Shown one piece after another: positions 1,907 to 15,962 of a stretch of DNA of 64,000 bases. The position numbers were made by a program, and so were the translations under genes. Location of the stretch: contig JAGVGO010000238.1 of the NCBI GenBank assembly GCA_020057085.1, positions 1,361-65,360 on the forward strand. Reading direction: 5' to 3'. Every line of letters begins with the position of its first letter. Positions within the stretch are counted from its first letter, which is position 1. This DNA comes from Planctomycetota bacterium. Lineage in GTDB: Bacteria; Planctomycetota; Uabimicrobiia; Uabimicrobiales; JABWCH01. Below the pieces are notes generated by a model that ran no database searches, was not told the DNA's origin, and was given only the letters and a program-made list of their open reading frames with translations.

Positions 1907-3292
1907 CTATATCCCTTTTCCGGTCAGGATTATCCAGGCGGTGCGGCAGATGATAAAGAGATCGAGCCAGCAGCTTTGGTGCCTGATGTAGTAGAGATCG
2001 TATTCCAGCCGTGTGGTGGCGCCTTCCAGGTCGTTGACATGGCGGAACTGGACTACCGCCCAGCCGGTCACCCCTGGCTTTGCCAGATGGCGCAAGTCGT
2101 GATTCGGAATGTCACGTGCAAATTGCCGGCACTGCTCGACGGTGAGCGGACGTACACCGACGATGGAGATATCTCCTTTGAATACGTTCCACAACTGCGG
2201 GAACTCATCGAGGTGAATTTTGCGCAAAATTTTGCCGACGCGGGTGACGCGTTTGTCGCCGTTTTCAGTCCACATTGGCCCTTGGTATTCCGCCTCGGTT
2301 ACCATAGTGCGCAATTTCCACAATTTAAAATGCCGTCCGTTTTGGCCGACGCGCAGTTGCGAGTAAAAGATCGGCCCACGTGAATCGAGTTTGATGGCCA
2401 GTGCCAAAAGCGGCAACAAGGGCAGAAAAAATGCCGCACCGATCAGCGTTAGGGCAAAATCCATGGCCCGTTTCGCTACCGTGTAGACGCTACCGGCGAT
2501 CTGGCCTTCAGCCGGCAAAAATGAAGAGTAGCAACCCTGTAAGTAACTGCTGGGGGTTCGTCCCAGAAAGCTTTCATACCATAGTGGCGCCAAAGTGAAG
2601 TTGATGCCTCTCGCTCTGCTCCGGATAAGCTGTTTTAACAGATGGTTTGATGGCAACTTGCAGTCGGCATAAATAATTTCATCCACGTCGTAGGCGGAAA
2701 TTTGTTTTAAATCTCTAAAATTGGCCGTGGCTATGGTCGCTACCACTTCATAGCAATGCGGATAGCAAGCCAGCAATTTTTCTAGCTCTTGCATGTATTT
2801 CGGCTTTCCCAGCAGCATGACGCGCTCTTGCATCGGCTTGCGGGGAAATATGATAAAGTAGGAAAAACGCCAGGCGAATACCAGCGAGCAAGTGATGACG
2901 CAAAACAACGACAGCGAAGCGCGCGGGTAATGATTAGGCGTGAAAAAATAGACAACAGTGATGACTATGCCGATCAATAACGTATTGTATAACGGCTGAA
3001 ACAAGGCGATTTTGCGATTGCGGAAGGTGGCCATGCCATAAGCATCGGTCACCATAGCAAACACCAGCCACAGCCCACACAGTGCCAACACTTCCCAGGC
3101 AAACTGATCCAGCCCGCTATAGATCTGCCAGACGATTAGCGTTGTCGCAGTCGCTATAATCAGGGCAACCATCTCTCCCAAGATCAGAAATATCTTGCGC
3201 CGAGAGAGATTTGGCCGCGGTTTTTTTAGACGAGGTCGCTCCACCTCAAGCTGCTGTGCGATCAACTCTCTTGCCAGTGCTTCTGTTTCCAT
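1907..3292 (-). CDS. Polyprenyl-phosphate glycosyl-1-phosphate transferase (bacterial sugar transferase family, WbaP/EpsB-like)
   Basis: 461-aa ORF with an ATG start. Several N-terminal hydrophobic segments are followed by the sugar transferase domain: KRAMDFALTLIGAAFFLPLLPLLALAIKLDSRGPIFYSQLRVGQNGRHFKLWKLRTM...DEFPQLWNVFKGDISIVGVRP. Confidence 0.9.
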   Translation of the reverse strand: METEALARELIAQQLEVERPRLKKPRPNLSRRKIFLILGEMVALIIATATTLIVWQIYSGLDQFAWEVLALCGLWLVFAMVTDAYGMATFRNRKIALFQPLYNTLLIGIVITVVYFFTPNHYPRASLSLFCVITCSLVFAWRFSYFIIFPRKPMQERVMLLGKPKYMQELEKLLACYPHCYEVVATIATANFRDLKQISAYDVDEIIYADCKLPSNHLLKQLIRSRARGINFTLAPLWYESFLGRTPSSYLQGCYSSFLPAEGQIAGSVYTVAKRAMDFALTLIGAAFFLPLLPLLALAIKLDSRGPIFYSQLRVGQNGRHFKLWKLRTMVTEAEYQGPMWTENGDKRVTRVGKILRKIHLDEFPQLWNVFKGDISIVGVRPLTVEQCRQFARDIPNHDLRHLAKPGVTGWAVVQFRHVNDLEGATTRLEYDLYYIRHQSCWLDLFIICRTAWIILTGKGI

Positions 3293-3303
3293 AATTGTAC
3301 CAA

Positions 3304-3351
3304 TATAAAATCCCTGTCAGCCTACTGGCCTAAGGCGAGTAGACTGGCAGG
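3304..3351 (-). terminator. Candidate intrinsic terminator closing the three-gene unit
   Basis: Read on the minus strand: CCCTGCCAG-T-CTACT, an 11-nt loop, AGTAG-G-CTGACAGGG, then ATTTTATATT. It begins 11 nt after the stop of 3363..5156. The outer stem has one C-A mismatch and the T-tract is short. Confidence 0.5.
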
Positions 3352-3362
3352 GAAGCAAAGTA

Positions 3363-5156
3363 TTAGCTCACTTTGAGCAGTTTGTCATAGAGTGGGAAGG
3401 CGGACGGATGTTCGCCGGCAATGAGCATTTCGATCTGGAAATCGTCCGGCGTCACTTCTGCCTTGCCTTCTGCCTTGATTTTGACCACTTTGAGATCGTC
3501 GGGCGCCTCGGTGCGGAATGTCACCTGCAACGGCACGGCCACTCTTACCTTGAGATTGACGTTCGCCCACAACTGGCTAATGCCACCCACCGTCTTCTGG
3601 TAGCCGAAATTGAGGCGTCTCACTCCGCGTTCGAAAGAGGCCGTGAATTCGCGCGGATGCTGCGCATCCCATTCTTTGTTATCCGGTTCGAGGGTGGTGT
3701 CAACGAGCGTGCCTTCCACCACCTTGCCGACGCGCCAGGTGAATTTCTGGCTCACTTCGGTGTCGAGGCCACCTTTTACGGTAAACATGCGGCCAAGACC
3801 TTTCTGATGGAACTGTACGATGTCGCACACACGCTCGATGCTAAGTTCGTCACTCGGCGCAGAAACACGTGCCTGCGGCACGCGGTTGCGATAGAGGAAC
3901 TCCTTGAACGCGTCGCGGAAATAAGGAATAGCGAACACTCTGCCGCCAAGGATGATGATGGTGTTCTCCGGGCTTTCGCTGAATCCCTTGAAAGTGAGCT
4001 CGCCCAATTTTTCCATGGCCTTGGTAAACTGCTCGCCCATCAGCTCCTCGAAGTGTTTTTTGCCATCAACTGATGACATTTTTTGCCAATCTTCCATCAC
4101 TTTGCGTGACAGGGTGCTGATGCGGTGCATCGGCGTGGCGCCATATCGTTTCTCCTCCTCCTCTTCGAGGAAGGCGCAACTGATGTGGTCGCCGCCAAAA
4201 CCAGTGCGGCCGAGGTAGTTGTGCGACAGCGTCACCGTCTCGCCGACGCGCTTGGCCGAGGCCAACTGGCTGAACGAGTTGACGCGCAGCTTGACGACGC
4301 GGGAGTGCGTGGCGCCGATGGTGACGACGAGGAAATTGATCGGATCGCTCGTGCGCGGCAAGATACCGTAGTGTACCATCAGTTTTTTGAGCTCCAGTTC
4401 CTGCACCGCCAGCTTCGCTTCCATCTGGTCGGTGAGCCAATGGAGGAATGTTACCACCGCTTCCGGCAGGAACACGAACCTCTCGCCCAGCTCCGGTGTT
4501 TCCTCTTCAGCAGGCAACAGCGGCGGGAAGAACTTATCCGCCGTTTCCACTAGCCACTGGCGGTACTGTTTGAGGTCGCCGGATGCGAAATAATCGGGAT
4601 ACTCGATGACGATTTGGCCTATCTGGAACCGCTTCACATCCGAGAAAAAAGTGCGCGCCTTGTGCCACAGGTGCTTGAACTGCGAACGCACGAACATCTG
4701 GTAGATGTCCTTGTTGGTGGGCGACTGATAAAGGCTCTTCTGGCCGTCGCACAGGGTGACGAACGAGGGCAGCTTGGTGCTGTTCAGCAAAAAACGACCC
4801 GGCTGCAGAAACAGTGTACACGGCGGGTCACTGCGGTCGCTCATGAAGTTGCTGAGTGCTTCGTCGCCGAGCGAGATTTCCTGTTCCTGATCGCTCAACA
4901 CTTTCTCGACACGCGCTGCCGCCAGTTCTACTTTCTGCTGCTGGTTCTCCGGCTTCCAGCGCATCACTTCGCTGCCTATCTGGCAGAGGAAGGTGCGCTT
5001 GGTAAACGTCGTACCGAGTGCCAGCCCGAGACAGAGCGACGGCAACTGGTAGCTACGTTTGGGTAACTTGATACCCGGCACGCTCATGGAAGATGGTCCC
5101 ATCGCCGGAACTACCCTGGATCTTGGATTCTTGTATACTTTGTCCCATACGCTCAT
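3363..5156 (-). CDS. Hsp70/actin-fold (ASKHA) ATPase-like protein with substituted catalytic residues; function unknown
   Basis: 597-aa ORF, ATG start preceded by GGAAAGG. Hsp70 NBD landmarks appear in the correct order: LGLALGTTFTK (phosphate-1-like), FLPEAVVTFLHWL (NEPTAAA-like), FLVVTIGATHSRVVKL (phosphate-2-like), IIILGGRVFAIPYFRDAFKEF (adenosine motif-like). The C-terminal region is beta-rich and unlike an Hsp70 substrate-binding domain. The alignment is by eye only. Confidence 0.6.
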   Translation of the reverse strand: MSVWDKVYKNPRSRVVPAMGPSSMSVPGIKLPKRSYQLPSLCLGLALGTTFTKRTFLCQIGSEVMRWKPENQQQKVELAAARVEKVLSDQEQEISLGDEALSNFMSDRSDPPCTLFLQPGRFLLNSTKLPSFVTLCDGQKSLYQSPTNKDIYQMFVRSQFKHLWHKARTFFSDVKRFQIGQIVIEYPDYFASGDLKQYRQWLVETADKFFPPLLPAEEETPELGERFVFLPEAVVTFLHWLTDQMEAKLAVQELELKKLMVHYGILPRTSDPINFLVVTIGATHSRVVKLRVNSFSQLASAKRVGETVTLSHNYLGRTGFGGDHISCAFLEEEEEKRYGATPMHRISTLSRKVMEDWQKMSSVDGKKHFEELMGEQFTKAMEKLGELTFKGFSESPENTIIILGGRVFAIPYFRDAFKEFLYRNRVPQARVSAPSDELSIERVCDIVQFHQKGLGRMFTVKGGLDTEVSQKFTWRVGKVVEGTLVDTTLEPDNKEWDAQHPREFTASFERGVRRLNFGYQKTVGGISQLWANVNLKVRVAVPLQVTFRTEAPDDLKVVKIKAEGKAEVTPDDFQIEMLIAGEHPSAFPLYDKLLKVS

Positions 5157-5196
5157 GATTAATCTGCCTTTCCAAATTTAATACACACACGGATCG

Positions 5197-7491
5197 CTAA
5201 CTCTTCTGGGCGGCTATGCTGGGCAACGGCGGAAGCTTGTCATACACCGTGCGCATTTTGTCATAACACTGGGTGACGATGATGGCCTCTTCTTCCGAGA
5301 TGTCGTCCCTGATATGGAAGGAAGAGGTGATGCGTGGTTTTTGCGCCCACAAATGCTTGCGCAGGCGATCCTGGTTCCACAGAGCGGCAGCCAGTTGGCA
5401 TTCCATGACACTCTGCACCGCTTCCTGGAAAGCTTTGCGTTCTTTGGTGGTGTAGAGTCCCTTCAGTTCCTGTTCCAGGACAGCTGCCGGTTCGAGCAGG
5501 TAGGCGATGACCGCTTCGACCGGGATGTTGCCTTTGATGATGGGCCGGCCCTTCTCTTCCATGAAGGCGACAATCTGGGCAACGACGCGTTCACGCACCT
5601 GTTTGAAGGTGTCTTCCTGGTAAGTGTCCCAGTCTTCCTGGTCTCTCTCGGCATACTGCAACACCTCACGCACCTGCTCCAGAGTCATGTATTTCTTGTC
5701 AACCAGAATCTGGCCGATGCGCACCCTGCGTCCGGTTTCTTTTTCGCCCTCGGCCTGGATGTGTAGAGCCTCCTCGATCTGTTTGGAGCTGGCAAATTTT
5801 TTCTGGATGCAGATTTCACCGAAACGTTCCGGCAAGCGGAACTCTTCGTTGCGCCAGCGCAGATCCTTGAGGTCTTCCATCAGCTTTTCCATGTAGGTGT
5901 CAATTTCTTTGTCGCTGGGACGGCCAGGCGTGATGCGTTTGACGCCGAGGATGGTGAGAAGATCCTTGGCGAACGGCAGAATCTGCGAGCCAAGACGGCT
6001 ATAGCGGATTTCGCTGCCCTGCTCACGCATAACTTTGGCCACTGTGCCCCAGGCAAATTTGATACCGCCGTCGGTGTTGCTGAGGCAGGCATCGAGGTTG
6101 GCATTGACATCGTACAGATAACGGTTGAGGGTCGGGCTGTTTTTGCTCGACTGAAGGAACGGCCGCGATTCCGACTGCGAGAAGTCGAACTTGGTGGCAC
6201 GGGTGAGGAACACATTGCGGAAGGTTTCACCAAGGCCGCGAATCTTGTCCATGACGTTGATTTGCACCCAGTTTTTCCATGATTGCTCCTCGTCAGGGAT
6301 AATCTCATTATTTGGCCCCTGCTTGAACTGTTTGTTCTTGATCGCCTGGTCGGTCGCCTTGTCAACCTTGTTGAGAAAGATAAAGAGACGGTTCTGCAAG
6401 TGGCCATGCTTGCGCGCTTCCTCGAACAGAGCCTGAAATTCGGTATCCACCTGCTGCTCTTCCAGCACCAGGATAAAGATGATGATATCCACCGAGGCCA
6501 CCAGACGCTCAAAGCCCCATCTGTTCTTGAAGGCCTGAATCTGCGAATGAACCATCTGGCGCGGCTTCAGGATATCTGCCTCGTCGCCACCGACACGCAC
6601 ACCGGCGGTATCGTAAACATCAATGTCTTTGAGAATGTCTTCGTCAACGAACAGTTGGGTAATGGCGCCGCAGGTGCGCATCATGAAGTAGGTCTTGGAC
6701 TCTTCCTTGGCCTCTTCGTCGCGGCACAAACGTTTATCTATGAGTGCCTTGGCAATGTGTTGCTCTCTTTCGCCTTTGTCCAGGAAGTTGATGAGTAGAC
6801 TGCGCGGCAGCGGGTTGTGACGCCCGAATTTGCCGCCTTCCGGATCGAAATATTTGGCGATTTCGTGCAGTGTCTCGAAATATTCGGCATCGTCGGCATT
6901 ACCTGTTACCTTGGCCCACGAGAAAATTTCGAGACTCCATTCGACCAACGCTGTGTGCAATTTTTTCTCGTGTGCAGCGTCCTTCTTCTGACTTGGGTCG
7001 CGTGCCACCTTGCCGAGGCGGTCCCATGCTTCGGCCATCTGTGTGTCACGCCGCACCACATTCTGCACTTTGGGCAGATCCGACACCAGTTTGTACAGAT
7101 CGCGCGGCATCAGGAAGGTGACGAGCCCGTGTTCCGCCGGGTTGATAGTGCGCGGATAGCGCAGACGCACTAACATCGGCGTAGTATCGGACGAAGTGGA
7201 AGCCGAAAATTCGCGTAGTCTTGTCAGGAAGCTATTGAGGAGTTCGGTCTTGCCTGCCGAGCTTGTGCCGAGCAGGATGGCGCACGGCGGGCGCTGCGCT
7301 CGTTCCACTACACTCAGTCCGTCGTTGCCGATAGAAGTAAGTTCGTCATCGAGGTCACGCAGTATCTTAAACCCCTTCTGGTCTATGTTGTCCTTGAATG
7401 TCTGTAATGGCCGTACCGCCTTGACGACCTCCCGCATCACTTCCGCCAAGTCGCCCAGTGTACGACAATGTTCTTGATAAGAAGATGGCAT
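5197..7491 (-). CDS. Dynamin-like large GTPase with C-terminal tandem MshEN/T2SSE_N-like helical motifs
   Basis: 764-aa ORF with an ATG start. G1 P-loop GTSSAGKT, G3 DTAGV, G4 NKVD. The large helical remainder fits bacterial dynamin-like proteins. Residues about 556-615 read RFGEICIQKKFASSKQIEEALHIQ...RIGQILVDKKYMTLEQVREVLQY. Confidence 0.75.
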   Translation of the reverse strand: MPSSYQEHCRTLGDLAEVMREVVKAVRPLQTFKDNIDQKGFKILRDLDDELTSIGNDGLSVVERAQRPPCAILLGTSSAGKTELLNSFLTRLREFSASTSSDTTPMLVRLRYPRTINPAEHGLVTFLMPRDLYKLVSDLPKVQNVVRRDTQMAEAWDRLGKVARDPSQKKDAAHEKKLHTALVEWSLEIFSWAKVTGNADDAEYFETLHEIAKYFDPEGGKFGRHNPLPRSLLINFLDKGEREQHIAKALIDKRLCRDEEAKEESKTYFMMRTCGAITQLFVDEDILKDIDVYDTAGVRVGGDEADILKPRQMVHSQIQAFKNRWGFERLVASVDIIIFILVLEEQQVDTEFQALFEEARKHGHLQNRLFIFLNKVDKATDQAIKNKQFKQGPNNEIIPDEEQSWKNWVQINVMDKIRGLGETFRNVFLTRATKFDFSQSESRPFLQSSKNSPTLNRYLYDVNANLDACLSNTDGGIKFAWGTVAKVMREQGSEIRYSRLGSQILPFAKDLLTILGVKRITPGRPSDKEIDTYMEKLMEDLKDLRWRNEEFRLPERFGEICIQKKFASSKQIEEALHIQAEGEKETGRRVRIGQILVDKKYMTLEQVREVLQYAERDQEDWDTYQEDTFKQVRERVVAQIVAFMEEKGRPIIKGNIPVEAVIAYLLEPAAVLEQELKGLYTTKERKAFQEAVQSVMECQLAAALWNQDRLRKHLWAQKPRITSSFHIRDDISEEEAIIVTQCYDKMRTVYDKLPPLPSIAAQKS

Positions 7492-7586
7492 ATTGACTCT
7501 GCCTTTCTAAAATTGACATGCTGTAACCCGGGCCGCCGGATCGAGCCTGCGGCCACGGGACAGTCCGTTAGATTGACAAGAAACGG

Positions 7587-10500
7587 CTAATATTTGTTGA
7601 TCACCGGTTCACTGTTGGGGAAATGTTTCTTTTCCATGATGTACTTCGGGAAACCAGGCAATTCCTGTAGCTGATCGCCCTTGACCGGCGTGATGCGCCA
7701 GATCACCGTAGTCTCACGACCGCGCGGCCATTCCAGCTTCGGATGCGTCCCCTTGAAATCCTTGGGTTGCTCGAAAATTTCCGGCACCAGGAAATTCAGG
7801 GTGTGGCTGTCTTGATAGCTGTAGCGGAACATCTGCTTCGGCTCACGCTCTTCCTTGTAATACTCGGTCAGTTCTTTTGACCAGATTAGCTTGGTTGCAC
7901 CAGGAATCTGGTCGGTCATCTCAAAGAACTTACTGAGCATCTCTACTGTGCGGTTGGGCGAAATCATACGAAAATCATAATCCTTGCACAGATCCTTGAG
8001 TGTGCGGTACGGTGAGAAAATATCGGGTAACACGGCATCTATATCTACATAGACAAATTCCAGGCGGTAGTCGCGGGAAAGTGCTTCCAGAGACCTCTGC
8101 CCCTCATCGGGCGCCGGTAACTGTTTCCAAGTGAGCAAGTGTGGTACGCGCTCAATGATGTAAGGCTTCGCTTCGATATGGTAGGCAAATGGCGACAAGA
8201 TCGGGCCATTGTCGAAGCTGAAAGTCCACCACCACCGCATCTTTTCTTTGGTAGTAGCGTTTTCTTTGCTGATGAGAATGGTAAATGTCTTGTCACGCAC
8301 CAGTTGCCGGATTCGGTCAGGCGAAATATGGTAGCCGCTCACTTCAAACAATAACACAGCGGCCGGGTGCGCCTCAAAGTCAATCATCGGCGGCCCACCT
8401 TCGCCCGGGCGGGTGATGTCTTTCTCGACGCCGCCTTCTTCGTAGAAGAGGCGCAGGCGCAAACGATTGGGTACCTTGGAAGCCTTAAGTTCGGCCGACG
8501 GATGCTGGACAAACCAATCCTGAAAGGCGGCGATGCCCTCTACGGTAACGAGATGGTAATTGGTTTCTTCCTTGGTGATGTTCACACTGTAAGCCTGGCT
8601 CGGATAGGCATCGAGGTCGAGGCCATTTCTACGGAAAAGGTACAGTTTCACCGGTTCGATGGGCGAGCCGTCTGCTGCCTCGCGATACGACTTGATGTAG
8701 ATCCACTTGCCGCCCCACGGACACCGTTCCAGCATCAGACGATCCACGACGAAAGTAAAGTTGGCGTACCATGTCTCGCGCGTTTTGGCGTCGGTGTATT
8801 GCGACATCATCGAACGCTCGACAAAGCGCAACAAGCCGGACGTTTCTTCTTTGCCAAGCCCCTCGCGGTTCTTGTCGTTTTCCATGCCGCGCACTTTGTC
8901 CTGGACCTCGCTGAAGTGTACCCGGCGTATATCGAGCGGAGTGACGAAGTAAGAACTGAGTTGCTTCTGGATCTCGGCCGCTATAGTGTTCACTTCAGGA
9001 TAATCTATCTTGCCTTCGACATCGCCTATTTGCGGGCTTACCGCCAGCATGGCAAGCCAGAATTTGCTGTCCGCCTTGTGGAAATCTTTGAGCCGTTTTT
9101 CCCACAACGAATCACGCAAGAGGTTCTGGTACAGCATGTCGGAAACCGACACATTGGCTTTTTCGACGACGTTGCTCTGTTTGGCAAAACTGGCCGGGAA
9201 CGGATATAGTTCTTTCAAAATCTCGGTGCTATCGGCAGCTTGCGCGAAATTTTTTGGCACACCATAGTAGTAAGACTCTGCCAGTTCGAAGATTTGCGCA
9301 GACTGCTTGTCGAGCAGCAACTTGTCATACGGAATAGCAAGCTGCACACTGACAAATCGCTCCGGTTCGCCGACGAGCGGCGGCAACGGATGGTTCGGCT
9401 CGGGCTGGACTTTCAGTTCAAAGGTCTTGCGGCTGGCCGACTCTTCTCTGTTGAGCAACCCGATCATGCTCCTGAGTTGCAACTGATCTTCGAGCAGTGA
9501 CTGGGTTTGCGGGCTCCAGGCCAGAAGCAACGCCTCGCGCATCATCTGGTAAGCCTCCTGTATCTTGGCCTCATTCTTGGTGCGGATGGCCTCGGTCACC
9601 ACGTCGCCCTGCTTGCCGAGAATGTTGACAGGAGGAGCGAGCGGCGGATAGCGGAAGCCGACTCCCTCAAGGCTCCAGCGAACGGTTTCCGCCCATCTTT
9701 GATCGTCAGCATGTACTACACCATCGCGATGGTACTTCTTGTGGAGCAGGGTCACGCTGGCGCAAGTGGCCAGGAATTCCAGTTTCTTCACCAGTTTGAG
9801 TGCCTGGGCTTTCGGATAATTTTCCACCTTGGCGGTGAACAGTTTCTTTTCGTCGTCCAGTTTTACCGTCCATTCCACCTGCTTCTCGGCAGCGCATGAA
9901 ATGTTCACTTTGAGCGTCGCTTCCATGCCTTTCGGCGGGTAGAAGAACTGGATTTCGGTGGCCTTGCCTGCATCGCCATACTTGACGCCCTGGCCGGGTA
10001 CTACCAGATATTTGAAAACCTTGCCGATAACGTCCTGTTCAGCACGGAAGTATTTCTCGCGGCCCGCTTCTTTGCACAAAGTGAGTTGTCCTGGGAACGT
10101 CTTGAGCAGTTTCAGCGTGTTATCGGCCTGTTCCAGGTTGGCAAACCAATCCTGATCGACGGTCTGATACAGACAGTTGGCTGTCTGCGGCTCTCTGATC
10201 GAGATGTAGACCTGATCCGACACGTCTTTGTCGGGCTGTTCGCCGGAGAATATGATCGCTTGGTAACGGAATTCACCGAGCGGTCCTTGCACATTTACGT
10301 TGTCGCGCCAATCTTCGCGGCCATACGCGGAGAGGCCTTTGCTCGCCGTATCCGATTTCCACTGGACGATGCGCAGCGCTTCCTTTGAACGTGCAGTGAG
10401 CGGCAGCACAGCCGCCACTTCACCGCTACGTGTCAAGGTAAACGAGGCATTTTCCACGTTCTTGTCGGTGAGTACCACCGCATACAACTGGTTGGCCGAC

Positions 10501-12755
10501 TTGGCGAAATCTTCGCGGATGCGGAACTGGCGGAAATCTTTCTTGTCAACTTCCTCGAACACCTTCACCTTGTTGGGTGCTTCCTGGTAGGCAGCAGCCT
10601 TCGGGGTGAAGTACATGGTGTTTTCCTTGAAATTGTAATCGCGGATGACGCGGGTTTCACCATTGGCTGTGTTGTAGAAATACAGCGTACGCGGGTCTTC
10701 CTGCAGTTGCAAGCCAAGGCCGAGAGCGCCGTAGCCGTCGGTCACCGGGTTGCTATCCTGGATATTGAAGGTGAATTGGCTGTACTCGTTCGGTTCTACC
10801 TTCTTGGGCGCTTCAGTCCAGAGCTGCTTGCGCAACTGGATCGGATAGGCAAGCCCTGTCACCTGATCACGGTCCGGGATTTTGGCCACGTCGAATTCCA
10901 CTTTCTCTTTGGGTACGAATATGAGCGCTACCGAGAGTGGCGAGGAAATGCCCGGTACGGCGATGTGCAGGCTGCCTTCCACCTTGTTGGTCGGCAGATT
11001 GCCGGAACGCACAGCCACCCGCACCACGGTGATCTTGGATGGCAGCTTGGGCAGACGATAAAAAGTCGTGCCGGCGAGTTCGAAACTATCCAATGGCTGC
11101 GCTTCCAGCTCATCTATGTCGGTCTTGGCCGGCTTCTTTTTGGGCTGTCGCGGTTTCGGCCTTGGGCGTTCCTCGCCTTCTCTGGCTTCATCTTCATCCT
11201 CTTCAAGGTTGATCGAGCGTACTTTCGGGTCTTTCGGCTTGCCTCGCGGATCGAACTCTTCGAAGGCAATAGTGGCTACCGGCTCCCCTTTGGGATCACG
11301 CAGGTAATGGATTTCCATAGGAATGGCCACACGGCTGACGAAATAGCTTTCCAGACTGACCCCGACCGCCGTTGTCTTGTCGTTCGGCGGATTGGCGAAC
11401 ACGCGAATTTCTTTGCCGATATAGCCACCACCGGGGATAGAACCGACTTCCGCCTGTTGGAAAGAAATTTCTGCAGGTTTATAGTTGATGTCCAGTGTCC
11501 AGTTCGGTTGCAATACCAATATTTCAATCTGCTGGCTTGCCACTTTAGCAGCCCCGGCATCCCTGGCGTTCACATCTTCCTTGGCCGGCACGATGGTGCA
11601 TCTTTCGCGACCACGTTTTTTGCCGGTGAGACGGAAGGTACGTTTGCCTTTTGCGTCGGCGATAAAGTTGGTTTCTACCAGCGTCTCAATCTTGGGTTCG
11701 CATTTGAATTCCTCTTCCTTGAGTGGCTCTTCGTAGTCCAGGTGGTACAGGCGATCCAATTGTGCCGAAATACCTAACGTCTTCTCTAAACGCAAAGGAG
11801 CACGATAGGTGCCGATCACCTGGATGTTATCCTGTACCTCTTCGTTCACATTGAGGACGATGCGGTTATTGACATATTCGCCTTTACCCATCGCCTCCAG
11901 ACGGATATTTTCCAGCACCGGCCGATTGAGGGGAGTAAGACCGGTGAGAAACATCAAGATCGAGAAAATGATGAAACCTATGCACGTGTACACTGCGGCA
12001 TAAGCTGTGCGGATGCACACCATTTCCAAAGTCGGAATATCACGGGAAAGATAGCGCAAGATTTGCAACATAGCGCCAAGATCATTGCTTTTGAGCAATT
12101 TGCGGAATTCCCGTTTATCCCATCGTTCCTGCACCAAATCTTTGATGGCGCGGATGGAAAGATCTTCGCTCTTTACCGTTTCATCTACCTCGGCAGGCAC
12201 GAGCGAATGCATGCCTATGGTAATGTGCCGCTCTCCGCTGTCGGAATCGCGAATGACAAAAGCTTCTTTGCCCGGATAGAGATGAAAATTGGCATACTGG
12301 AAAAGCTTTTCTTCTCGCAATGTCTTGACGGCGGCAACAATATCAAGAAGTTCTCTGGCAAATTTCTTAGTTTCATGGAATGGATTGGTTGGGTCTTTGC
12401 TCAGAGAAGAATCTACAGGGAAATATTGGCGATTCTGTGGCAACGAGATGCGCAAAGGTAACATCTGATTGCCGAGGTTGGTATAGGTGGAAGATGCGTT
12501 AAACACTCCCAACTCAGGAATGCGTTCCGCAATATTTTCCCAAATAGCTTTTTGCACTAAGACCCCTTCCTTTTCTTCGGGAGGAACTTCGTAGAAAAGG
12601 TCGCCCAATGCCTCGATTCCCTGATGGCAAATTTCGAATTTTCGAGGAATTTCCTCAAAGGCCTTAGCGTCTACCCGACATTTAAAGTTAGGGGGAAATG
12701 TAAAGCTGCCTTCTTTTAGCTGAATTCCCCTAGCTGTCTCTATTGTGGTAGGCAA
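7587..12755 (-). CDS. Orphan giant protein (1722 aa), single predicted transmembrane helix, no recognisable domain
   Basis: Uninterrupted 5.2-kb ORF. TTG start 7 nt downstream of AAGGAG. One hydrophobic segment at about residues 250-274 (TAYAAVYTCIGFIIFSILMFLTGL). A highly charged linker reads EEDEDEAREGEERPRPKPRQPKKKPAKTD. I saw no internal repeats and no signal peptide. Confidence 0.85.
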   Translation of the reverse strand: MPTTIETARGIQLKEGSFTFPPNFKCRVDAKAFEEIPRKFEICHQGIEALGDLFYEVPPEEKEGVLVQKAIWENIAERIPELGVFNASSTYTNLGNQMLPLRISLPQNRQYFPVDSSLSKDPTNPFHETKKFARELLDIVAAVKTLREEKLFQYANFHLYPGKEAFVIRDSDSGERHITIGMHSLVPAEVDETVKSEDLSIRAIKDLVQERWDKREFRKLLKSNDLGAMLQILRYLSRDIPTLEMVCIRTAYAAVYTCIGFIIFSILMFLTGLTPLNRPVLENIRLEAMGKGEYVNNRIVLNVNEEVQDNIQVIGTYRAPLRLEKTLGISAQLDRLYHLDYEEPLKEEEFKCEPKIETLVETNFIADAKGKRTFRLTGKKRGRERCTIVPAKEDVNARDAGAAKVASQQIEILVLQPNWTLDINYKPAEISFQQAEVGSIPGGGYIGKEIRVFANPPNDKTTAVGVSLESYFVSRVAIPMEIHYLRDPKGEPVATIAFEEFDPRGKPKDPKVRSINLEEDEDEAREGEERPRPKPRQPKKKPAKTDIDELEAQPLDSFELAGTTFYRLPKLPSKITVVRVAVRSGNLPTNKVEGSLHIAVPGISSPLSVALIFVPKEKVEFDVAKIPDRDQVTGLAYPIQLRKQLWTEAPKKVEPNEYSQFTFNIQDSNPVTDGYGALGLGLQLQEDPRTLYFYNTANGETRVIRDYNFKENTMYFTPKAAAYQEAPNKVKVFEEVDKKDFRQFRIREDFAKSANQLYAVVLTDKNVENASFTLTRSGEVAAVLPLTARSKEALRIVQWKSDTASKGLSAYGREDWRDNVNVQGPLGEFRYQAIIFSGEQPDKDVSDQVYISIREPQTANCLYQTVDQDWFANLEQADNTLKLLKTFPGQLTLCKEAGREKYFRAEQDVIGKVFKYLVVPGQGVKYGDAGKATEIQFFYPPKGMEATLKVNISCAAEKQVEWTVKLDDEKKLFTAKVENYPKAQALKLVKKLEFLATCASVTLLHKKYHRDGVVHADDQRWAETVRWSLEGVGFRYPPLAPPVNILGKQGDVVTEAIRTKNEAKIQEAYQMMREALLLAWSPQTQSLLEDQLQLRSMIGLLNREESASRKTFELKVQPEPNHPLPPLVGEPERFVSVQLAIPYDKLLLDKQSAQIFELAESYYYGVPKNFAQAADSTEILKELYPFPASFAKQSNVVEKANVSVSDMLYQNLLRDSLWEKRLKDFHKADSKFWLAMLAVSPQIGDVEGKIDYPEVNTIAAEIQKQLSSYFVTPLDIRRVHFSEVQDKVRGMENDKNREGLGKEETSGLLRFVERSMMSQYTDAKTRETWYANFTFVVDRLMLERCPWGGKWIYIKSYREAADGSPIEPVKLYLFRRNGLDLDAYPSQAYSVNITKEETNYHLVTVEGIAAFQDWFVQHPSAELKASKVPNRLRLRLFYEEGGVEKDITRPGEGGPPMIDFEAHPAAVLLFEVSGYHISPDRIRQLVRDKTFTILISKENATTKEKMRWWWTFSFDNGPILSPFAYHIEAKPYIIERVPHLLTWKQLPAPDEGQRSLEALSRDYRLEFVYVDIDAVLPDIFSPYRTLKDLCKDYDFRMISPNRTVEMLSKFFEMTDQIPGATKLIWSKELTEYYKEEREPKQMFRYSYQDSHTLNFLVPEIFEQPKDFKGTHPKLEWPRGRETTVIWRITPVKGDQLQELPGFPKYIMEKKHFPNSEPVINKY

Positions 12756-12955
12756 CTTTGTACTCCTTTTTCTTGTTTAGATCTTTTGCCGATACCTTTT
12801 TGTCAGCAATCGCTAACAAAAGCAACATTAACCGCAGCTAATGTAGGGTATGTCTACCAACGCACGTAGCAATCAGTTACGTGCTCCTGCTAACGTTTTA
12901 CTGAATTGCTGGATAAATTGCAATTACTTTTCTGATTTTGTTTATCGTTATAGCC

Positions 12956-12983
12956 ATTTTACTTGTTTTTTATAGCATGTCAA
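12956..12983 (-). promoter_or_regulatory. Sigma70-like promoter candidate for the giant/dynamin/Hsp70-like unit
   Basis: Minus strand reads TTGACA (12983-12978), a 16-nt spacer, then TAAAAT (12961-12956). It lies in an AT-rich intergenic region and implies a leader of about 190 nt before the TTG start at 12755. Confidence 0.5.
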
Positions 12984-13004
12984 AGCAAAAAATTTTACGT
13001 GTAG

Positions 13005-13085
13005 CACGGGCGTATCCAATAATTAGGGGGCATAGTAACTTTTTGGAATAACTACCCACCCCCCGAAGTGTTAGATACGCCCGTG
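13005..13085 (-). terminator. Long hairpin just downstream of 13095..13598 (terminator/insulator candidate)
   Basis: Perfect 12-bp inverted repeat CACGGGCGTATC (13005-13016) / GATACGCCCGTG (13074-13085), with inner pairings AGGGGG/CCCCCC and TAGT/ACTA. It starts 9 nt after the upstream gene's stop. On the minus strand a T-run (AAAATTTTTT) follows only after about 10 nt, so it is not a canonical intrinsic terminator. Confidence 0.4.
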
Positions 13086-13094
13086 TAGCACCAA

Positions 13095-13724: not shown

Positions 13725-15962
13725 ATGTCGGACCCTTTTGAGCCAAATAAAGCGCAGTCCAATGATGCGGGCAACAAACAGCGTGCCTTAGACCGCGAAA
13801 GAGCGCTAGAACGCATTTTCGTGTACCAGGCCGTGGAATTCGGCTATTTGACACAGGATCAATTGATCGAGTGTATAGCCGAACAGGAGGGATCGTCGCA
13901 AGCAATTGCCCTCCTTACGATTTGCAAACAAAAAAAATATCTGACCGAATCTCAAGTCAGACATCTCATGAGCAAAAGAGGTGTGTTCAAATTCTCCAGT
14001 CTGGAGCCGCGCGAGGAGAGACAACCTGTGGCGCCGCCGGTGTTCCGCGAAATACCAGAGCCTATTTTGCATCCCGCCGTTCCGTTGGAAGCAAAAGTGG
14101 AACGTCTGCTGGAAGAAAAAGACCGCCAATTGGAAAGAGAGCAAAAACAGCGCGAATTTTTGAAACGGCAGGTAGGAACTCTGGAGCAGAGAGTCCAGAA
14201 TAGCGAAAAGGAGAAGTTGGAATTTGTCACCAAATACCAAAGCGATATCGCGACGCTCAATGCCCAGTTGGAATATTATCGTAGTCTGAACGCCGAGCAA
14301 AAACTGAAAGATCTCGAAAAGAAACTGGAAGAAAAACAGCAGAAATGCCAGGTTTTGTTCAAATTGGTGGAGCAAAACAGAGAAGAACTCCAGGAGTCGG
14401 AAGAACAGAAGCTCAAAGCGGAAGGTGAATTGCAAAAGAACAGCAAAGAACTGGAGTTCTTACAGGAAAAACTGGACAAAGAAAACAAGGAGAAAATCCG
14501 CTTAAAGAAAGATTTACAGGAAAGCGAGGAAAATCTCGCCAGGCTTGGCAAAGACCTGGAATCGCTGCGTATTGAAAAAAAGAGGGTGACTGTGGCGATG
14601 GTCAAGCAGGACGCATCGGCCAAGTCCGCCGAAGGACCATGCGCAGGCAGAGAGTGTGATGATTACACTAAATTGGCACGAGAGCTCGAGGAGAAGGGCA
14701 TCCTGGAAAGCAGGCTCAGGCAACAAGAAGCCACGCTGTTGCAACAATTGGAAAAGGCCAACAAAGACCACGAACTGTTGCAAGAGCAGTTACGCCAGGA
14801 AAAAAACGGTCTCAGAGAGCAATGGGAGCAGGAAAAGGCGAAGATGGAAGAGGAGCTACACAAGCTCAAAGTATCTCTGGAAACCGATGTGACCCAGTAC
14901 CGGCAGAAAAACGAGCAACTGGAAGCAAAAGTTCAGCAATACCAGCATTCGCTGGGTTTCGATGATCAGGAAAAACAGAAAAAAGTTTTGCAACAACAAC
15001 TGGAGGAAGAGCAACAGAAGAGCAAGGCTGAAGAGGAAAAGAGAATACAATTGGCGCAACAGATGGAAAAAATCCAGCAGGAAATGGCCAATTTTCGCCA
15101 GTTGGTGATTGCCGGAGAACTAAAGGCCGGCACCTCGCTCTTGGGTAGCGGCGGCGAGTCTTATATCATCCAGAAAGTACTCGGACGCGGCGGCATGGGC
15201 ATCACCTATTCGGCGCTGCGCAACTCCGACCAGTTTACGGTGGTGGTGAAAACCCTGTTACCGGAAGCCCTGGGCGATATGAAAGTACTCATGCGTTTCG
15301 TGCAGGAGGCTCGCACCATCATGACTTTCGAGCATGAGAATCTGGTGCGAGGGCTGGACGTCTATCAGGGCCGCAATTTCAGTTACTTTGTCATGGAATT
15401 TCTCGATGGCGAGTCGGTGGAAAATATTCTGGAAGAGTAGGCGTTCGTGGACCCGGTACGCGGCACGGAAATCGTTCTTGGCATTGCGCGTGGGTTAGCT
15501 TATATGGAAGCACACCACCTGGTACACCGCGATGTCAAACCAGCCAATATCATTGTCCAGAAGAGCGGCGCGGCGAAGCTGGTAGATTTCGGTATCGTCA
15601 AAATGACCGACCGTACCTGCTCGCTTACCACTGAGGGTATCATCCTGGGCACACCGTATTATCTTTCGCCGGAGCAGACCTATCAGACCAGTGTAGACAT
15701 CAGAAGCGATATTTACAGCCTGGGCGCCACTTACTATCACATGGTGGTAGGCGAAGTACCGTTCCCCGGTGACAACCCGATTGATGTGATTCAGCAACGC
15801 CTGCACCACACGCCAAAACCGAACAAAACCAAGCCAGACCTGCCCAAAGAGATCAATAATGTCATCGAAAAGATGATGCATTGCAAAAAAGAAAAGCGAC
15901 AGACGACGGCCGCGGAGCTGGTCAAGGAACTGGAGTTTGTCTATAAGAGGATTCATCGCTAG
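13725..15962 (+). pseudogene. Coiled-coil Hanks-type Ser/Thr kinase interrupted by a single in-frame TAG (15438-15440)
   Basis: ORFs 13725..15440 and 15447..15962 are in the same frame and separated only by TAG-GCG-TTC. The first carries the G-loop LGRGGMG, VVVKTL and the alpha-C Glu. The second carries [11 protein letters not shown] and YYLSPEQ. Together they make one complete kinase domain split between the N- and C-lobes. The N-terminus has a GspE_N-like helical motif and about 350 aa of coiled coil. Confidence 0.7.

Follow-up and report, generated by a model that had tools for sequence, protein, structure and literature searches.

Three co-directional genes encoding an orphan giant protein, a dynamin-superfamily GTPase with an MshEN domain and a divergent Hsp70-family protein appear to constitute a unit that is confined to the order Ca. 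Uabimicrobiales and is inherited there as a fixed block. The parts come from known superfamilies (dynamin, Hsp70 and MshEN), and their assembly matches no characterised system. The earlier note on this DNA had already held that no characterised system shows this architecture, and none was retrieved by PADLOC, domain or literature searches; the papers searched contain no mention of a dynamin-like or Hsp70-like module in Uabimicrobium. Tentatively, we favour the view that the module is a c-di-GMP-gated machine for membrane remodelling (tethering/fusion/fission).

The window, i.e. the whole 64,000-nt stretch of DNA that was analysed, represents contig C27 of a 3.73-Mb MAG (59% complete), which belongs to one family (f1) of the order. 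The three ORFs are all located on the minus strand, in the order giant, GTPase, Hsp70-like protein, and are separated by gaps of 95 and 40 nt, neither of which contains a terminator-like site. A promoter-like site precedes the start of the giant by ~200 nt, and conservation of the promoter region among relatives did not extend beyond the Uabimicrobium pair. The TTG start of the giant has the motif AAAGGAG upstream, and the N-terminus that follows is kept across the homologs. A comparison of the 200-nt leader with Rfam identified no family; the one miRNA match, to mir-3817 at 13001-13087 (minus strand), had an E value of 0.29, far under the gathering score, and was discarded as a chance match. 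Past the Hsp70-like gene lies a hairpin with a folding energy of -29 kcal/mol (z = -5.1 versus shuffled sequences), directly followed by the U-rich tail UUUUAUAUU, so that the two together plausibly form an intrinsic terminator.

Table 1. Features of the three-gene unit, in the direction of transcription (positions are those of the window)
Feature	Position	Strand	Remarks
Sigma-70-like promoter TTGACA-16-TAAAAT	12956..12983	-	11/12 consensus match, top-scoring such site in the region
5′ leader, ~200 nt	12756..12955	-	Between the promoter-like site and the start of the giant
Giant protein, 1722 aa, TTG start	7587..12755	-	ORF; N-terminus conserved
Intergenic spacer, 95 nt	7492..7586	-	Without terminator
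Dynamin-superfamily GTPase (mitofusin/BDLP-like), 764 aa	5197..7491	-	Fold and G motifs
Intergenic spacer, 40 nt	5157..5196	-	Between the GTPase and Hsp70-like ORFs
Divergent Hsp70-family protein, 597 aa	3363..5156	-	Lobe II of the NBD matches Hsc70
Putative intrinsic terminator	3300..3353	-	Hairpin 3353-3310 and U-rich tail 3309-3300

Downstream of the unit are genes for a Wzt-type O-antigen ABC transporter and a WbaP-like sugar transferase. These polysaccharide genes lie beyond the putative terminator, and the unit is therefore set apart from them. The sequence signals, i.e. the promoter, the hairpin terminator and the terminator-free gaps, thus support a single transcription unit separate from the polysaccharide genes, as the earlier note had proposed with coordinates that were all correct. 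The O-antigen/capsule export ORFs for the ABC transporter, which has a Wzt C-terminal domain, and for the bacterial sugar transferase occupy positions 562-1845 and 1907-3292 (both minus strand). Upstream of the unit, on the plus strand, a Ser/Thr protein kinase is split over two ORFs (13725-15440 and 15447-15962). The first ORF closes with the beginning of the Pkinase domain (aa 481-570), and the second carries its continuation (aa 7-160); this split suggests a frameshift or a sequencing error. An expansion of Ser/Thr kinases has been noted in this lineage (PMC11032199).

Homologs of all three proteins are confined to Uabimicrobiales, i.e. to five genomes of family f1 and three genomes of a second family (f2), which include Ca. 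Uabimicrobium amorphum SRT547 and Ca. U. helgolandensis HlEnr_7. A survey of 401 Planctomycetota genomes from across the phylum detected the giant in those Uabimicrobiales genomes only. The earlier note had named a lack of synteny among the homologues as a finding that would refute it, and the opposite was observed: in all 8 other carriers, the three genes are direct neighbours with order and orientation unchanged. The genes flanking the module differ between the genomes and are unrelated. The pairwise identities of all three proteins rank the genomes alike, as expected if the unit has been inherited together.

The second gene had been described as encoding a GTPase with dynamin-type G1, G3 and G4 motifs, and the comparison with its homologs bore this out. 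The G1 P-loop GTSSAGKT (aa 72-79; nt ~7255-7278) is invariant in the 12 homologs that contain the N-terminus, and the G3 motif DTAG (aa 294-297) and the G4 motif NK(V/I/L)D (aa 374-377) are invariant in the GTPase homologs. A PDB profile search retrieved only weak myosin P-loop matches. In a structural comparison, the model of the protein aligned over almost its entire length with mitofusin, BDLP and SynDLP, and its architecture, a large GTPase domain joined to a helical bundle (neck/stalk), is BDLP/mitofusin-like. By analogy with these proteins, it is probably a membrane tethering, fusion or fission enzyme. In human cells, dynamin-family proteins pinch and fuse membranes.

The C-terminal helical region of the GTPase contains a feature that the earlier note had missed, i.e. 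a tandem MshEN domain (aa 556-614; nt ~5650-5826). It consists of two ~24-aa motifs of the type RLGxxLxxxGxLTxxQLxxALxxQ, in agreement with the MshEN fold, and is predicted to be a c-di-GMP sensor. Many other proteins with MshEN-like motifs are encoded in the same genome (e.g. on contigs C94, C140, C163 and C68), pointing to a rich repertoire of c-di-GMP receptors. The protein shares fold and G motifs with the dynamin superfamily (BDLP, SynDLP, LeoA/DynA and mitofusin), but differs from these members by an all-helical insertion of ~150 aa, which the secondary structure of the model places between alpha1 and switch I; G-alpha subunits also match the GTPase over this region. Unlike known bacterial dynamin-like proteins, it carries the tandem MshEN motifs, which in MshE reside on a type II secretion/pilus ATPase. 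Other bacterial dynamin-like proteins are usually found singly or in dynamin pairs, whereas the operon partners here are the orphan giant and the Hsp70-like protein instead of a second dynamin. In Ca. U. amorphum SRT547 (NZ_AP019860.1, locus L020 ~8450-8460), a frameshift at an A5 homopolymer in the MshEN region splits the GTPase gene into ORFs of 588 and 159 aa; this may reflect either an error in the assembly or a genuine pseudogene.

The nucleotide-binding domain (NBD) of the third protein is actin-like with Hsp70 topology (lobes I/II, IIA/IIB), although the AlphaFold model is poor (mean pLDDT 54) and lobe II alone, which matches Hsc70, is trustworthy. A PDB profile search with this protein gave no match. 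The phosphate-1 loop reads GLALGTT instead of the canonical DLGTT, with 13 of 14 homologs having Ala in place of the Asp, and the phosphate-2 loop reads VVTIGATHS, without an Asp, instead of DLGGGTFD. These motifs were read by eye, because an hhalign comparison of the profile with E. coli DnaK aligned just the adenosine GG motif. The phosphate/Mg-binding Asp residues thus apparently are replaced, in line with what the earlier note had described, which could mean that the protein binds nucleotides only. A beta-rich C-terminal region (aa ~475-577) is a putative SBD-beta-like part; the alignment with 7a4u extends to residue 591 of the poor model, in which no helical lid was seen. Both the absence of the lid and the apparent Asp replacements distinguish the protein from DnaK, Hsc70, BiP and Hsp110, to which it is ~15% identical, and it was not detected with E. 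coli DnaK as query. A role as a housekeeping chaperone was rejected, since a canonical DnaK is encoded elsewhere in the genome.

The giant had been regarded as an orphan with a single membrane pass, and both attributes were supported. Together with about 12 homologs it yielded nothing above chance against Pfam, and the same was true for the giant against NCBIfam, PHROGs and PADLOC. A PDB profile search with a 12-sequence alignment gave no match, ESM Atlas feature searches with three segments gave no usable match, and self-BLAST revealed no internal repeats. A full HMMER profile search with the 1163-aa C-terminal body against 1.84 billion protein representatives retrieved only 19 proteins, i.e. 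members of its own family (about 6 full-length at 50% clustering), fragments and two shorter Uabimicrobium paralogs. By these searches, the giant represents a genuine orphan family of one order. The two shorter proteins, P0072 (518 aa, profile positions 419-975) and P0071 (377 aa, 648-978) of Ca. U. helgolandensis HlEnr_7, are by sequence a small paralog family in Uabimicrobium.

Strong hydrophobicity is limited to a single segment of the giant (aa 250-277; nt ~11925-12008). This segment follows a conserved RDIPT motif, is kept in all homologs and contains the invariant residues F261, M268 and N277. The protein is therefore most likely a single-pass protein with an N-terminal domain of ~245 aa and a body of ~1450 aa. 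The charges that flank the helix are balanced (K+R 3 versus 3) and favour neither orientation. No homology to membrane-coat proteins of the beta-propeller/alpha-solenoid type was detected by sequence, and a clathrin-like nature of the giant was rejected, as no relation was detectable.

Membrane remodelling or repair was one of three candidate roles put forward in the earlier note, next to envelope assembly and conflict (defence). In the membrane-remodelling model that we tentatively favour, the three proteins would act in one assembly. The giant would be the scaffold or organiser that fixes the machine to a site on the membrane, and the dynamin-like protein would oligomerise and, by hydrolysing GTP, tether, fuse or sever membranes. 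Binding of c-di-GMP to the MshEN domain would gate the GTPase, and the Hsp70-like protein would reset or disassemble the assembly. In eukaryotic endocytosis, Hsc70 uncoats after dynamin has acted. The likeness to clathrin-mediated endocytosis, i.e. to a coat, dynamin and uncoating by Hsc70, is a functional analogy only, consisting of a large organiser, a dynamin GTPase and an Hsp70-family protein. In contrast to the clathrin system, the giant has no detected homology to clathrin, the Hsp70-like protein is not Hsc70, and the three-gene unit includes no auxilin/J-domain partner.

Tethering, fusion and fission by the dynamin superfamily could also serve envelope biogenesis or a vesicle/tubule machine unrelated to feeding, for example in OMV release, cell division or endomembrane maintenance. 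The link of the module to c-di-GMP signalling via MshEN would fit, as c-di-GMP commonly regulates envelope and surface programmes, and it would couple membrane remodelling to shifts in lifestyle such as surface-dependent motility, which reportedly occurs in U. helgolandensis; in addition, the envelopes of Planctomycetota are unusual. This role is inferred solely from the general function of dynamin-like proteins, however, and the restriction to Uabimicrobiales is in better agreement with a lineage-specific trait than with a general envelope function, making it an unlikely explanation.

The presence in every sampled member of Uabimicrobiales and the absence from all other sampled Planctomycetota are also relevant for a possible role in anti-phage defence or membrane repair, in which the dynamin-like protein would guard the membrane during infection and the giant would be a sensor or effector. 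Other bacteria employ dynamin-like proteins against phages and to repair membranes: DynA of B. subtilis guards membrane integrity during infection, and Eleos is a dynamin-based defence system. Odd combinations of genes, such as the present one, are common in defence systems. However, these are usually patchy among close relatives and located in defence islands, whereas the module is flanked by polysaccharide and kinase genes and shows a stable gene order and co-varying identities. Its restriction to one lineage also speaks against a mobile defence system. PADLOC gave no match for any of the three proteins, and no homologs of the Hsp70-like protein were found on viral contigs. We regard a defence function as rather improbable. 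It is very unlikely that the GTPase and the Hsp70-like protein serve to fold, insert or traffic a giant that has an unrelated surface or adhesion role: Hsp70s are chaperones, a membrane protein of 1722 aa might need dedicated help and the genes share one predicted transcription unit, but dynamin-superfamily GTPases that carry a second-messenger sensor are not known as chaperone partners, and the apparent loss of the catalytic Asp argues against classical ATP-driven cycling.

Membrane remodelling might have a specific use in this order. Engulfment of other cells into sealed compartments has been shown for no bacteria other than the “bacteria of prey” (BoP), which belong to this lineage (PMC11481906; bioRxiv 10.64898/2026.10.26.761892). 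The MAG lineages of family f1 carry the module as well, beyond the members of the order for which engulfment has been shown. Ca. Nanovorax helgolandensis is non-engulfing. According to the BoP preprint, no eukaryote-like phagocytosis protein is conserved, and its list of 245 BoP-specific orthogroups names no candidates (bioRxiv 10.64898/2026.10.26.761892). The module is therefore a natural candidate for a part of the machinery, and in these bacteria it might help to seal or process the compartment that holds engulfed prey. A stricter version, a scission/sealing machine dedicated to prey engulfment, in which the giant would organise the neck of the phagosome or the engulfment cup, the GTPase, gated by c-di-GMP, would seal or cut the membrane and so close off the prey compartment, and the Hsp70-like protein would then disassemble the complex, seems doubtful to us. 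If the frameshift in U. amorphum is real, an engulfing organism has a broken GTPase, which weakens the link and may argue against the necessity of the module for engulfment.

A fixed operon that combines a dynamin-like GTPase, an orphan giant and an altered Hsp70 with predicted gating by c-di-GMP has no characterised counterpart. The operon is a specific and testable candidate for machinery by which prey-containing compartments are sealed. If the engulfment role were true, bacteria would have arrived by convergence at a counterpart of the eukaryotic coat/dynamin/Hsc70 module, with implications for how phagocytosis-like uptake can evolve in the absence of eukaryotic parts and for the debates about eukaryogenesis. 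If that role were false, the module would still represent a new class of putative c-di-GMP-regulated dynamin systems.
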